From Patescibacteria group bacterium (GTDB taxonomy: Bacteria > Patescibacteriota > Patescibacteriia > Patescibacteriales > GWC2-42-12), in the NCBI GenBank assembly GCA_041662965.1, contig JBAZRI010000004.1, forward strand, positions 7,305 to 71,304: a stretch of 64,000 bases of DNA, written 5' to 3'. A program made the translations under genes and the position numbers. Position 1 is the stretch's first letter. The number at the start of each line of letters is the position of its first letter. Below the pieces are notes generated by a model that was not told the origin of the DNA, did no database searches, and was given only the letters and a program-made list of their open reading frames with translations. Positions 6,930-63,612 of the stretch are shown piece after piece.

Positions 6930-7901
6930 TTATTCCGCTAAAGCATTCGCTCCCGCGCTAATTTCCGCTATTTCCGCCGTAATGCTGGCTTGTCTGGCTT
7001 TATTGTATGATAAGGTCAATTCATTCACCATGTCCCCGGCCGCGTCCGTGGCCTGATGCATGGCCGCCATGCGCGCCGAATGTTCGGAGGCGTTAGACTC
7101 TAAGAGCGCCTGATAAAGCTGGATTTCAATCAAACGGGGCAGCATCTGGTCCAAAACTTCTTCCGGGCTGGGTTCAAAAACATATTCATAATTAAATTGT
7201 CCGCTTTGCAAATATTTCTTTTCCTTCTGTTCTACGAATTCTTTATCCAAGCCAAGCCTGGTGTCTTCGCCAACTATGCCCAAAGCATCGTCAATTTTAT
7301 CAATTTCTATGGGCAAAATTTGCTTAACTCTGGGAATTTGCTTTGACGAGCTGACAAAATCCGTATAAGCCACCATAACTTTATCATACTGGCCGCTTAA
7401 ATATTCGCCGATAACTAAATTGGCTACCGGCACGATTTCGTTGACCTCGCTGGCTAAATCAAGCTTGGGGAAATCAGCCGTAATCGTTTGGCCGTGGCGG
7501 CTGATGGCCGCGCCCTTTTTACCGACTAAAATAAATTCCGCTTCTATTATCGTCTGCTCGCCCATGGTTTGATATTTTTTAATTGACTCGTGCACTTTAT
7601 TGATAATCGCCGCGTTAAAACCACCGCACAGCCCGCGGTTGGAAGTAATTAAAATAATGCCGACTTTCTTGATTTCTTTCCTTGGAGTTAAAAGCTGGTG
7701 CAGCGGCTGATTATTGCTGTTTGCCGACCGGGACAAATTCAAAACCGTCAGCCAGCTTAAATTAGCGTAAGTCCTGGTACGCAGCACGGCTTCAATGGCT
7801 TTGCGCATTTTTGACGCCGCCACCATTTCCATGGCCTTGGTGATTTTTTTGGTATTGCCGATGGATTTTATTCTGTTTTTTATATCTCGGCCTGATGGCA
7901 T
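6930..7901 (-). CDS. atpG: F1 ATP synthase subunit gamma
   Basis: KKITKAMEMVAASKMRKA N-terminus and ITAEIAEISAGA C-terminus. Confidence 0.95.
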   Translation of the reverse strand: MPSGRDIKNRIKSIGNTKKITKAMEMVAASKMRKAIEAVLRTRTYANLSWLTVLNLSRSANSNNQPLHQLLTPRKEIKKVGIILITSNRGLCGGFNAAIINKVHESIKKYQTMGEQTIIEAEFILVGKKGAAISRHGQTITADFPKLDLASEVNEIVPVANLVIGEYLSGQYDKVMVAYTDFVSSSKQIPRVKQILPIEIDKIDDALGIVGEDTRLGLDKEFVEQKEKKYLQSGQFNYEYVFEPSPEEVLDQMLPRLIEIQLYQALLESNASEHSARMAAMHQATDAAGDMVNELTLSYNKARQASITAEIAEISAGANALAE

Positions 7902-10448: not shown

Positions 10449-10527
10449 ATATATTATGTTTATACAATTAATAATTTCACCACTGCCCCGATTAATTTAG
10501 CCGGAGCAGTCCGTAAAACCACTAAAA

Positions 10528-10812: not shown

Positions 10813-10914
10813 TAGTTGGCCTGAATTTGTAAAATTTTCGTGCGAGGACTGTTTGAGCTTCGCGGCAGCGAAGCGAGTTCCGCAGTAGAAAATTTTTTAA
10901 ATTCAGGCCAACTA
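10813..10914. ncRNA. Copy A of a ~100-nt conserved-core hairpin element (candidate structured RNA or mobile hairpin)
   Basis: Outer stem TAGTTGGCCTGAATTT/AAATTCAGGCCAACTA; invariant blocks AAATTTTCGTGCGAGGACTGTTTGAGC and GCGAGTTCCGCAGTAGAAAATTT; apical stem GCTTCGC-GGCA-GCGAAGC. Located in the atpB-atpE spacer. Confidence 0.6.
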
Positions 10915-30078: not shown

Positions 30079-30182
30079 TTGGCTCCGCGAATAATGGCAA
30101 ATTTTCGTGCGAGGACTGTTTGAGCCCGCCAGCGGGCGGGCGAGTTCCGCAGTAGAAAATTTGCTGTTATTCGCGGAGCCAA
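30079..30182. ncRNA. Copy B of the conserved-core hairpin element
   Basis: Outer stem TTGGCTCCGCGAATAA/TTATTCGCGGAGCCAA; same invariant blocks as copy A; apical stem GCCCGCC-AGCG-GGCGGGC. Confidence 0.6.
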
Positions 30183-35731: not shown

Positions 35732-35833
35732 AGGCTGGGTTATATTTAGAAAATTTTCGTGCGAGGACTGTTTGAGCCCCGCAGTAGCGGGGCGAGTTCC
35801 GCAGTAGAAAATTTACTAAATATAACCCAGCCT
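35732..35833. ncRNA. Copy C of the conserved-core hairpin element
   Basis: Outer stem AGGCTGGGTTATATTTAG/CTAAATATAACCCAGCCT; same invariant blocks as copy A; apical stem GCCCCGC-AGTA-GCGGGGC. Confidence 0.6.
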
Positions 35834-57071: not shown

Positions 57072-58556
57072 ATGAAATACATCCTCTACGCCCGCAAATC
57101 AACCGATGAAGACGACAAACAAATTTTATCCATTGAATCCCAAGTGGCAGAATTAAAAGAATTTGCCGCCAAAGAAAAACTTGAAATCGCCGCCTCGCTC
57201 TGCGAGGCAAAAACTGCCAAAGAACCTGGCCGAATGAAATTCGGCGAAATGCTGACTTTAATTGAGCAAGGCAAAGCTGATGGCATACTCTCATGGCATC
57301 CGGATCGCTTAGCCCGTAATCCGATTGATGGCGGTAGAATTATTTATATGGTTGATACGGGCAAAATAAAATCTCTCAAATTCCCCTCTTTTTGGTTTGA
57401 GGACACACCGCAAGGAAAGTTTATGCTTAACATCGCTTTTGGGCAAAGCAAATATTTTATAGATAACCTTTCAGAAAACGTAAAACGAGGCTTAAGGCAG
57501 AAGCTAAGAAACGGCGTTTATCCTGGTTGGGCGCCGCTTGGCTATCTAAACGACTACAAAAACCATAATATAGTTATCCACACCGAAAAGCATAAACTTA
57601 TAAAAAGGATTTTTGAGCTCTACTCTGCCGGCGAATATACCTTGAAAAATTTAGCCGATAAATTTAATAATCTGGGGCTAACAAGCCACAACGGCAAAAA
57701 AGTAAGTCCGGGCATGATGTTGTTCATTTTAAAAAATCCTTTTTATTACGGCGTATTTAAATATAACGGCGAACTGCACGAAGGCAAGCACGAGCCAATT
57801 ATAACTAAGAAACTTTTTGACCAAGCGCAGGAAATGCTTAAAAAAAGAGGCCGGCACCATGAAAAGAAAATACACAATTATATTTTTACCGATTTTATGA
57901 AGTGCGGGACTTGCGGCTGTGCGATTACGGCCGAAAAGCACAAAGGCCATATTTATTATCGCTGTACCAAGAAAAAGGGTGTTTGCGCTGAAAAATATAT
58001 TAGAGAAAAACTATTAACCGACCAGCTTAAAAATATAATGCAAAAAGTTTCTTTGCCTGATGATTGGGCTGATAATATGCTCAATGAATTAAATAAAGAG
58101 AAAGCGACATCAGCCCAATCATCTATCGCCCTGGTTAATTCTTTAAATTTGGAAATTAAAGCGATTGAGAATAAACTTGATAATTTGCTTGATTATCATC
58201 TTGAGGGCGTAATTGATAAAAATGACTATTTAAGAAAGAAGGAGGAGCTAATCAACAAAAAGGTCGGCCTTGAGGAAAAAATCAAAAGAATTAACGATCA
58301 GGGCGATAATTGGCTCGAACCCATGAGAGATTTTATTTTGCGTTCAAGGTTAGCAAAAAAGACCGCCGACGAAGGCGATCTTTCCCAATTCAAAGCATTT
58401 CTAAAAAATATCGGCTCGAACTTTATTTTGCAAGGCGGAAAGTTTGAATTTTTAGCTGAATTTGAGTGGGCGCTTGCCTGCCGAAGGCAGGCATATGCGA
58501 CATGGCTCCCCAAAAAAAATTTCAGCGAACTTTTACCCTCGCCTTGCCGAATTTAA
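57072..58556 (+). CDS. Large serine recombinase (resolvase/invertase N-domain + recombinase domain + zinc ribbon + coiled coil)
   Basis: YARKSTDEDDKQILSIESQ catalytic N-terminus, DRLARN, CGTCGCAITAEKHKGHIYYRC. The last ~40 codons lie in repeats Y and Z, so the C-terminus is uncertain. Confidence 0.9.
   Translation: MKYILYARKSTDEDDKQILSIESQVAELKEFAAKEKLEIAASLCEAKTAKEPGRMKFGEMLTLIEQGKADGILSWHPDRLARNPIDGGRIIYMVDTGKIKSLKFPSFWFEDTPQGKFMLNIAFGQSKYFIDNLSENVKRGLRQKLRNGVYPGWAPLGYLNDYKNHNIVIHTEKHKLIKRIFELYSAGEYTLKNLADKFNNLGLTSHNGKKVSPGMMLFILKNPFYYGVFKYNGELHEGKHEPIITKKLFDQAQEMLKKRGRHHEKKIHNYIFTDFMKCGTCGCAITAEKHKGHIYYRCTKKKGVCAEKYIREKLLTDQLKNIMQKVSLPDDWADNMLNELNKEKATSAQSSIALVNSLNLEIKAIENKLDNLLDYHLEGVIDKNDYLRKKEELINKKVGLEEKIKRINDQGDNWLEPMRDFILRSRLAKKTADEGDLSQFKAFLKNIGSNFILQGGKFEFLAEFEWALACRRQAYATWLPKKNFSELLPSPCRI
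58430..58509. repeat. Inverted repeat arm Y
   Basis: Exact partner of 56315-56394; ends with GGCTCC. Confidence 0.95.
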
Positions 58557-58778
58557 TCCACAAAGCAAGGACTTGCCTGCCAAAGGCACGGCGCAAGCGA
58601 AAAGGAATTTAAAACAAAAAATTTAAAAGCGACAATCGGGGGCAAAGCCCACGCACCCCCAAAAAAGCGGGCGGGCAAAAAGGAAGGGGTTTAAGGGGAG
58701 GGAATTTTTGCCCGCCCGCTTGCCCGTCCGAAGCCGAAAGGCGTAGGAGGGCTTTTCCGCCCCGCCGTATTTTTTCGT
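58505..58778. repeat. Inverted repeat arm Z (274 bp, perfect partner at 63339-63612)
   Basis: Checked block by block with no mismatch. Rich in hairpins, e.g. GCGGGCGGGCAAAAA...TTTTTGCCCGCCCGC. Confidence 0.95.
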
Positions 58779-58881
58779 ATTCGCTTAATGCGAATACGCC
58801 GCCAATCAAAAAAATATGTTTACCTCGCCAACCTGCGCGTGCACAACATAATTATTACCTTTGTATAAATTTAAACATTTT

Positions 58882-63276: not shown

Positions 63277-63338
63277 TATTTTAAAAATTTAATAAAACAA
63301 TCATAGAAGTTTAGGCGGCGCGCTGGCGAATAGCCAGC

Positions 63339-63612
63339 ACGAAAAAATACGGCGGGGCGGAAAAGCCCTCCTACGCCTTTCGGCTTCGGACGGGCAAGCG
63401 GGCGGGCAAAAATTCCCTCCCCTTAAACCCCTTCCTTTTTGCCCGCCCGCTTTTTTGGGGGTGCGTGGGCTTTGCCCCCGATTGTCGCTTTTAAATTTTT
63501 TGTTTTAAATTCCTTTTCGCTTGCGCCGTGCCTTTGGCAGGCAAGTCCTTGCTTTGTGGATTAAATTCGGCAAGGCGAGGGTAAAAGTTCGCTGAAATTT
63601 TTTTTGGGGAGC
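63339..63612. repeat. Inverted repeat arm Z'
   Basis: Exact reverse complement of 58505-58778. Confidence 0.95.

Follow-up and report, generated by a model that had tools for sequence, protein, structure and literature searches.

A repeated bacterial hairpin element with an invariant asymmetric core shared across phyla

The 64,000-nucleotide stretch analysed here, called the window throughout (positions 7,305 to 71,304 of contig JBAZRI010000004.1, from a Patescibacteria group bacterium), carries three copies of a hairpin element of about 100 nt. The copies are named A, B and C, and copy A lies inside the atp operon. Each contains an internal, asymmetric core of about 29 nt, and this core recurs across bacterial phyla; its cross-phylum sharing is the main result of this work. 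The core stays fixed while the helices around it change in sequence and keep their pairing, and at the atp locus the core is conserved in place in an orthologous copy. Tentatively, we favour the reading that the element is a non-autonomous palindromic repeat similar to the repetitive extragenic palindromes (REPs), whose core may be recognised on the folded plus strand by a putative trans-acting factor.

Distribution of the core across bacteria

A scan of 185,579 species-representative genomes with the 22-base core pattern GGACTGTTTGAGC-N10-24-GCGAGTTCC returned at least 120 loci. By their record titles, the carriers among the matches listed include, within the Patescibacteria, Parcubacteria, Saccharibacteria, Gracilibacteria, Falkowbacteria and Uhrbacteria, and within the Betaproteobacteria, Gallionellaceae, Aquabacterium, Thiobacillus, Methylophilaceae, Niveibacterium, Iodobacter and Caldimonas. 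The same listed matches contain one Gammaproteobacterium, Desulfobulbaceae (Desulfobacterota), Polyangiaceae (Myxococcota), Coriobacteriia and other Actinomycetota, Bacteroidaceae, Lachnospiraceae, Gastranaerophilales, Spirochaetota and Omnitrophota, and also four cultured isolates, which are Betaproteobacteria (Aquabacterium sp. CECT 9606, Iodobacter sp. BJB302, Niveibacterium sp. 24ML and Caldimonas sp. KR1-144). The carriers span at least eight phyla, and the lopsided 29-nt core is near-identical throughout. Many matches are close to a contig end, at most a few hundred bases away from it, which is the usual effect of a multi-copy repeat on short-read assemblies.

No true match to the core was found in PLSDB plasmids, GenBank phages or 5,426 E. 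coli genomes. Among the 2.9 million viral contigs of IMG/VR there were zero exact matches and two relaxed ones, which resemble proteobacterial host-type copies. The first-pass annotation, made from the letters of the window, had been unable to match the element to any RNA family, and this holds: an Rfam search of the window and 19 loci gave nothing real. At the gathering threshold of Rfam 15, nothing was found over the element in the window or in 18 diverse loci, the sole match in these loci being a tRNA elsewhere in one of them (L004). At E-value thresholds, Rfam returned chance matches to microRNA, small nucleolar RNA, small RNA and long non-coding RNA families only, far under their gathering scores, and a scan for tRNA and transfer-messenger RNA gave no match. 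As a DNA or RNA string, the core retrieved unrelated primers only from the literature, and the papers examined on REPs and their RAYT transposases (PMC6006769 and PMC3733652 among those) describe no such core. The family is apparently undescribed so far. Repeated palindromes are known; an internal core that is invariant across phyla, combined with termini that vary and the lack of a linked gene, is unmatched in the Rfam and literature searched.

Anatomy and covariation of the core

The 126 copies found with a covariance model (R1) come from 99 sources and include 121 distinct ones (alignment A2). The asymmetric core reads YG-A-GGAC-UGUYU-GA-GC ... GC-GA-GUUC-CG-CAG. Its outermost surrounding is the outer stem, which is specific to the lineage or the copy. 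On the 3' side comes the bulge CAG (CAA in seven copies); next inward are two pairs of YG with CG, followed by a bulged A. GGAC then pairs with GUUC, with one invariant G·U, and is followed by a 5-nt bulge, UGUUU (UGUCU in eight copies). Inside this bulge, GA stands opposite GA as a tandem G·A/A·G, and GC is paired with GC. The apical hairpin that closes the structure is 7 to about 45 nt long and free in sequence.

The two kinds of helix behave differently. The six pairs of the core helix are paired in 98.9% of cases with zero double changes. In the apical helix, 185 cells are changed on both sides, against 56.9 ± 5.4 in shuffles, and pairing reaches 97% in register versus 25-48% when the partner is slid by one to three columns. 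The pair just inside the tandem GA (4b-4n) takes the forms C-G, G-C, U-A and U·G. In the 121 distinct copies, the GA at columns 19-20 and the GA at columns 73-74 vary little or not at all, and C12-G75 never varies. Because an insert of variable length separates the two invariant halves, the halves are read folded together and not as a duplex site of fixed spacing. The first-pass annotation had taken the lopsided core and its covarying helices as a sign of constraint on a folded single strand, either RNA or single-stranded DNA (ssDNA), and the excess of double changes (185 versus 57 ± 5), together with the compensated orthologue at the atp locus, bears this out.

Several other assignments of the core were considered and rejected. 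A pairing of GAGC with GUUC, as in domain V of group II introns, does not fit, as the last base of GAGC changes together with the first of GCGA (GAGG..CCGA, GAGU..ACGA). An alternative register of GGAC on GUUC is ruled out by a variant in which G10 becomes A and pairs with U77, and a CUG/CAG pseudoknot by the change of CAG to CAA without a change in the partner. The consensus positions of the hammerhead, the hairpin ribozyme, twister and the T-loop do not fit by eye, and the GG-to-GC spacing of a σ54 promoter is off by one. A likeness to type I-E CRISPR repeats (GAGTTCC with a CCCGC hairpin) is mismatched in order and strand and lacks an array; indeed, unlike regularly spaced CRISPR repeats, the copies in the window are solitary and kilobases apart.

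Insertion and constraint at the atp locus

The window was compared with 80 related atp loci from metagenomes. In relatives with 79-84% identical AtpB, the atpB-atpE spacer is 27-34 nt long; it measures 205 nt in the window and 198 nt in L152, whose AtpB is 86% identical. Hence, the element is an insertion. L152 carries the element in the same place and orientation as copy A, as its orthologue; only the window and L152 have it in the atpB-atpE spacer. L133 carries an independent copy in the atpE-atpF spacer, which is also antisense. These are the only two copies in 480 kb of related sequence, so that the distribution of the element is patchy.

The orthologous pair shows what is held constant after insertion. 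At identical residues, third codon positions are about 60% identical between the window and L152 (119/200 in atpB, 42/67 in atpE), and of the 51 conserved bases outside the apex, 50 are identical. The single change in the core turns GGAC into GGGC, and the pair survives as G·U on the plus strand. The 16-nt outer arms differ at six positions in the 5' arm and five in the 3' arm; all 11 differences are transitions, leaving five pairs fully compensated and one as A·C. The apical stem is wholly replaced in L152 with its pairing kept. The core is thus under purifying selection at this locus, as judged against the synonymous sites, and the stems are held only to pair. A candidate TTAATAATA target duplication in L152 sits in AT-rich, low-complexity sequence. 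No 'empty' arms lacking the core were seen among the collected loci, all of which were chosen for carrying the core.

The atp spacers hold other small structures as well. In the atpE-atpF spacer of the window (around 10455-10520, minus strand), a hairpin CGGACTGCTCCGG..CCGGGGCAGTGG follows atpE and is kept with compensatory changes in L122, L124 and L133; it may be an attenuator or processing stem of the atp operon. Varied, unrelated hairpin or tandem-repeat insertions, for instance of the GTCATTGCGAGCG...CTCGCAACGAC type or as CCAATTT tandem repeats, are present in the atpB-atpE and atpE-atpF spacers of L123, L130, L133, L136, L140, L152 and L158. Small insertions apparently have hot spots in both spacers.

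The three copies in the window

The three same-strand hairpins of about 100 nt with exact 27-nt and 23-nt shared blocks, on which the first-pass annotation was built, were confirmed at the coordinates in Table 1, as was their setting in gaps between co-directional minus-strand genes, with one orientation for all and copy A inside the atp operon. Test patterns of 24 nt and 23 nt taken from the shared blocks each match exactly three times in the window and have zero matches in 100 dinucleotide shuffles of it, and a covariance-model search found no fourth copy there. Each copy folds as a single long hairpin, with minimum free energies on the plus strand of -54.6 (A), -70.3 (B) and -60.2 (C) kcal/mol and z-scores of about -9; the minus strand folds 3-10 kcal/mol weaker. 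No other local inverted repeat in the window is as strong as these three copies, which have arms, inner stem included, of 27-28 nt that are 93-96% complementary, and their 7-bp apical stems differ in sequence and pair in all three. Copy A is flanked by genes with ATP-synt_A and ATP-synt_C domains on the minus strand. All three copies lie 31-39 nt past stop codons, and the plus strand of each is antisense to its neighbouring genes.

The outer stems had been described as unrelated between copies, and this is not wholly so. A and B share the start TAGTTGGC. A-type arms (..GAATTTGTA) are found again in other Patescibacteria (L032, L078, L010 and L028), as are B-type arms (..ATAATGGC; L050 and L063). 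With arm types recurring in other genomes, the outer stems of the window are diverged homologues and not independent of one another.

Table 1. Positions of the three element copies and of their parts in the window
Feature	Coordinates	Strand	Remarks
Copy A, whole hairpin	10813..10914	+	atpB-atpE spacer, antisense to atp genes; covariance-model score 71.1 bits
Copy A, outer stem, 5' arm TAGTTGGCCTGAATTT	10813..10828	+	partner 10899-10914
Copy A, outer stem, 3' arm AAATTCAGGCCAACTA	10899..10914	+	
Copy A, inner stem AAAATTTTC	10831..10839	+	partner 10888-10896; conserved in the Patescibacteria subfamily
Copy A, universal core, 5' half CGAGGACTGTTTGAGC	10843..10858	+	CG pair, bulged A, GGAC, UGUUU bulge, GA, GC
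Copy A, variable apical hairpin TTCGC-GGCA-GCGAA	10859..10872	+	
Copy A, universal core, 3' half GCGAGTTCCGCAG	10873..10885	+	GC, GA, GUUC, CG, CAG bulge
Copy B, whole element	30079..30182	+	covariance-model score 71.7 bits
Copy B, flanks			224-aa open reading frame without Pfam match / NAD kinase gene, both minus strand
Copy B, outer stem	30079-30094 / 30167-30182		
Copy B, inner stem	30099-30106 / 30155-30162		
Copy B, universal core, 5' half	30110..30125	+	
Copy B, variable apical hairpin CCGCC-AGCG-GGCGG	30126..30139	+	
Copy B, universal core, 3' half	30140..30152	+	
Copy C, whole element	35732..35833	+	covariance-model score 75.0 bits
Copy C, flanks			193-aa open reading frame / 876-aa CARDB-domain gene (surface protein), both minus strand
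Copy C, outer stem	35732-35749 / 35816-35833		
Copy C, inner stem	35751-35758 / 35807-35814		
Copy C, universal core, 5' half	35762..35777	+	
Copy C, variable apical hairpin CCCGC-AGTA-GCGGG	35778..35791	+	
Copy C, universal core, 3' half	35792..35804	+	

Strand, orientation and arms

On the plus strand, mismatches in the outer stems comprise 87 G·T and 42 A·C. Copies antisense to both neighbours have G·T and A·C in a ratio of 24:6, and for sense copies this ratio is 14:7. Since the excess of G·T holds in both orientations, the strand that folds is the element's own plus strand and not just the strand transcribed with the neighbours. In low-GC genomes, where open reading frames (ORFs) are called reliably, the plus strand of copies with co-directional flanks is antisense to both of them in 20 cases and sense in eight. 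The overall bias is about 2:1 for antisense, with both orientations occurring, and the GC skew on the element strand is negative at 77 of 114 loci.

The arms of Parcubacteria copies reach 31-51 perfect Watson-Crick pairs and are unrelated between copies. G·T pairs in arms are scarce (about 3%), and the arms stop right at the stop codon of a neighbour or no more than 3 nt from it. GNA triloops closed by C-G are frequent; such triloops are exceptionally stable in DNA. No conserved promoter was found, the flanks being unique to each copy. In the window, no T run follows the hairpin of any copy on either strand, and the plus strand around copy A has no more promoter-like or terminator-like sites than shuffled sequence.

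Larger units and variant copies

The Gallionellaceae core belongs, as one module among others, to a mosaic of 250-330 nt. Different species share this mosaic at unrelated loci, and it includes GTAG-containing segments and GC-rich hairpins; the 271-nt Gallionellaceae composite as a whole folds no better than shuffles (z = -0.34). Longer repeat units that are nearly identical also recur inside one metagenome-assembled genome (MAG). A Bacteroidaceae MAG has a repeat of at least 290 nt, and Eggerthellaceae have a conserved unit about 110 nt long, enclosed by perfect arms of 12-31 bp that are specific to each copy. In 31 of 144 copies the core is followed, 57-95 nt downstream, by another conserved hairpin, TTTGGTTnCTTT..AAAGnAAC. 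Its carriers belong to four phyla (Betaproteobacteria, Desulfobulbaceae, Bacteroidaceae, Parcubacteria and Saccharibacteria), and hairpins of this kind that seem to stand alone usually have a divergent core upstream. This second module is absent from the window copies.

The loci with the TTTGGTTnCTTT hairpin include L009, L014, L023, L035, L037, L046, L053, L060, L077, L091, L108 and L116, and together with adjacent GC-rich hairpins it makes back-to-back terminator-like sites. Two further variants were seen. On the reverse strand of L120 (6162-6304), a contig presumably from a Polyangiaceae, the whole element occurs twice in tandem with a 98-nt period. In L028 (3251-3350, plus strand), an extra 41-nt GC-rich hairpin is nested between GAGTTCC and GCAG, giving a three-way-junction variant.

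Neighbouring genes

An all-against-all BLAST of the ORFs within 3 kb of 120 copies revealed no shared family besides spurious ORFs across the repeat itself. Neither this clustering nor the 150 nearest ORFs contained a Y1 transposase, and no parent insertion sequence was found near the copies by nearest-ORF Pfam search or BLAST clustering. IS200 TnpA and E. coli RAYT served as tblastn queries and gave one relevant match, the C-terminal pseudogene of a RAYT-type Y1 transposase (..NVVDWPH*SFHRYVAKDLL..) at L109 3930-4100. This remnant contains in-frame stops (..KHGHVTNVVDWPH*SFHRYVAKDLLFRS*..) and is found immediately 3' of the composite element. The match is suggestive but a single case, and its association may be with the mosaic's GTAG-type modules and not with the core.

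Other genes were noted in passing. A helicase of the UvrD/Rep type is nearest to the copy in four of the 150 cases (L013, L031, L035 and L086), which is above expectation for one to three such genes per genome, and some of these loci may be orthologous. An IS200-type TnpA gene at 166-543 of L151, the atp-region locus of a relative, is 41% identical over 126 aa to the IS200 TnpA of Salmonella and has no element copy associated with it. Elsewhere in the window, a 299-nt inverted repeat (58505-58803 / 63314-63612, 96% complementary) encloses a 4.5-kb segment with genes for YibE/F, a ParA/NUBPL-type ATPase, a ZIP transporter and a pyruvoyl arginine decarboxylase. A large serine recombinase gene (Resolvase + Recombinase + Zn_ribbon_recom; 57072-58556) adjoins this segment and runs into its left arm. 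The segment could be invertible or integrated.

Discussion

The reading that we tentatively favour requires that something reads the core. The core would be readable only when the plus strand is folded on itself, and the folded core would serve as the recognition site, and possibly for cleavage too, of a conserved factor whose gene lies elsewhere in the genome. Foremost among the candidates for this factor is an ssDNA enzyme of the Y1 HUH kind (RAYT / TnpA-Y1); a universal host enzyme is the other candidate. Such a trans-acting protein presumably exists and would mobilise the element. The arms and the apical hairpin would need only to pair; with pairing as their sole requirement, they would drift, be compensated and be free to lengthen up to the coding sequence. 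A conserved reader is implied by a core that is fixed in at least eight phyla within a free scaffold and without a linked gene. The first-pass annotation had held that the element is not a transposable element of the miniature inverted-repeat type (MITE). This stands in so far as there are no conserved terminal inverted repeats, but the element still behaves as repeated and evidently mobile DNA: it is inserted relative to close relatives, occurs in multiple copies, at contig ends and in both orientations, and forms part of mosaics in several phyla. The three copies within 64 kb, the tandem copies and the separate insertion in L133 are counted on the same side. The GTAG-bearing mosaics of Gallionellaceae, the RAYT remnant in L109 and the confinement to chromosomes, with no copy in plasmids or phages and next to none in viral contigs, likewise favour a REP-like element.

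The molecule that folds could be DNA or RNA, and the traits point both ways. Long perfect arms, arms ending at stop codons, few G·T pairs, C-GNA-G triloops, the bias of about 2:1 in orientation and GC skew and the lack of a conserved promoter point to DNA. The core that resembles a kink-turn (k-turn), the invariant G·U, the compensated changes made of transitions only and the terminator-like sites downstream point to RNA. Under the favoured reading, the folded molecule would be ssDNA rather than RNA.

A number of observations weigh against a REP-like element. Its core is shared across phyla, unlike lineage-specific REP families, and no REP is known to be so shared; its foot and arms are its most variable parts, and it has no conserved 5' GT[AG]G foot. 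Pfam assigned 197 ordinary families to the 150 nearest ORFs and no transposase, integrase or reverse transcriptase, and the trace of a RAYT near copies is limited to the pseudogene in L109. The flanks of the aligned copies show no consistent direct repeat of the target-site-duplication kind and no conserved insertion motif. In L039, opposite orientations occur within 6 kb in one co-directional gene cluster, so there is no strict coupling of orientation to replication or transcription. The k-turn likeness of the core, with its tandem G·A by a bulge and its C-G closing pair, also belongs here, as do the arm differences between the window and L152, which as transitions only fit stepwise wobble compensation in RNA or in ssDNA. 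Finally, in high-GC copies a terminator-like hairpin with a T run stands 24-60 nt downstream on the plus strand in 19 of 59 cases, against 8 of 59 on the other strand.

Several of these points feed the main rival, which we consider possible and somewhat less probable: a structured RNA module, in which the transcribed plus strand forms a long helix with a k-turn-like kink and the spread of the element is secondary. Alone or within longer transcripts, such a module would recruit a conserved RNA-binding protein or set a point of processing, stability or termination. The core obeys the k-turn rules save for the length of its bulge, in that the canonical stem ends in C-G, the tandem G·A/A·G is invariant and 4b-4n covaries; the 3b-3n pair is G-C, as it is in the U4 snRNA k-turn. 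An invariant G·U, with a second G·U in one variant, the excess of G·T over A·C, the better folding of the plus strand by 3-10 kcal/mol, purifying selection in situ, the compensated arm changes, the terminator-like sites of the high-GC copies and the second conserved hairpin in four phyla all suit an RNA. Against it, there is no conserved promoter and each copy has its own flanks, the plus strand around copy A has no excess of promoter-like or terminator-like sites over shuffles, and the plus strand is antisense to both neighbours in 20 of the 28 low-GC co-directional cases, with both orientations occurring. Moreover, 40-50 perfect Watson-Crick pairs with almost no G·U are atypical of RNA, the bulge has 5 nt and not the canonical 3, and GNA triloops are likelier in DNA hairpins. 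No k-turn-binding protein of the L7Ae type is known in bacteria outside the Firmicutes. A related proposal, which we also consider possible, is that a very widely conserved partnership has its binding or active site in the core, which would then be a new class of structured RNA or an ssDNA signal. As RNA, it could be a k-turn-like module or small ribozyme carried by a selfish hairpin; as ssDNA, it could be a signal read by a universal host enzyme. Such a partnership, if true, would explain how 29 nt are held constant in Patescibacteria as in Proteobacteria, Actinomycetota and Bacteroidota without a linked gene or a viral or plasmid carrier.

The remaining explanations dispense with a dedicated reader or borrow one from a known system. 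A selfish palindrome without its own factor would have a core that just nucleates hairpin extrusion; template switching at replication (quasi-palindrome correction) would make the copies and lengthen the arms, and conservation would reflect gene conversion between copies and a horizontal spread of recent date. Perfect arms that are specific to a copy and stop at coding sequence, the tandem duplication in L120, the nested hairpin in L028 and the lack of a linked gene agree with this, yet template switching would remove asymmetric bulges and not fix 29 nt across phyla. At the orthologous locus, 50 of 51 bases are kept against 60% at neutral sites, and the arm changes between the window and L152, transitions throughout, point to selection via wobble intermediates; a vehicle of spread is also lacking, given no exact match in viral contigs and none in plasmids. 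We therefore regard it as unlikely. The two readings that follow fail direct tests. A plain intrinsic terminator or mRNA-stabilising stem-loop would account for very stable intergenic hairpins, which in the window lie 31-39 nt past stop codons, but no T run is present there on either strand, a generic hairpin needs no invariant 29-nt core and copy A sits inside the atp operon; this is very unlikely. Least probable of all is an attC-like or dif-like site recombined as a folded strand by a tyrosine recombinase. The outline of paired arms, extrahelical bases and a variable terminal structure does recall attC, and the window copies share one orientation between co-directional genes. However, the outer ends are what varies most, GTTGGCC...GGCCAAC is the reverse of attC polarity, no integrase is among the neighbours, and the flanks are housekeeping genes (atp operon, NAD kinase) and not cassettes.

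The element would be a widespread and easily recognised addition to the annotation of bacterial genomes. It breaks many MAG assemblies and sits in essential operons such as atp. As four cultured Betaproteobacteria carry it, the recognition and upkeep of such repeats are directly testable. If the core is a variant RNA kink-turn or a new protein-binding DNA hairpin, it would provide a compact and portable recognition module.

As a rule, a repeated extragenic palindrome is found in one genus or family only. With REP, REPIN and BIME sequences the element shares its multi-copy, chromosomal and extragenic nature as an imperfect palindrome without an internal transposase, its mosaics with other modules, probable recognition as a folded single strand, compensatory pairing and sites between convergent or co-directional genes. 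REPs are 20-40 nt long with a 5' GT[AG]G foot, and each family is tied to one lineage and to its own RAYT (PMC6006769, PMC3733652). In the window copies, GTAG occurs only in an internal loop, where related copies have GAAG, ACGA or ACAA. The element differs from REPs in that its internal asymmetric core is common to at least eight phyla and not restricted to a lineage, and in that no cognate RAYT is found near its copies apart from the one pseudogene remnant. The subterminal hairpins of IS200/IS605 elements and of their PATE derivatives are irregular and read as ssDNA by Y1 HUH enzymes, as the present element would be; common to both are also the lack of a clear target duplication and an orientation bias related to replication. 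Those elements have two hairpin ends and usually tnpA/tnpB nearby, whereas the present element is a single hairpin with a bias of just about 2:1 and both orientations within 6 kb.

MITEs such as Correia/NEMIS, ERIC/IRU, RUP and BOX are also intergenic repeats of about 100-150 nt that form hairpins upon transcription, found in operons and showing insertion polymorphism between relatives. Their terminal inverted repeats are conserved, target-site duplications accompany them, and each stays within a genus or family; the termini of our element differ between copies and lineages, no duplication is detectable and the core crosses phyla. The attC sites likewise act as a folded single strand, with paired boxes and extrahelical bases and with structure kept over sequence, but they conserve the outer R''/R' boxes (RYYYAAC...GTTRRRY) and vary inside, need IntI and follow cassette ORFs. 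The k-turns of the U4 snRNA 5' stem-loop, box C/D and Kt-7 resemble the core, at the level of sequence, in the asymmetric bulge followed by tandem G·A/A·G (sheared in k-turns), in the canonical stem closed by C-G and in a non-canonical stem of Watson-Crick pairs with one pair covarying. Most carrier phyla have no known partner of the L7Ae family. The core departs from k-turns in its invariant bulge of 5 nt (UGUYU) instead of 3 and in its additional conserved A and CAG bulges.

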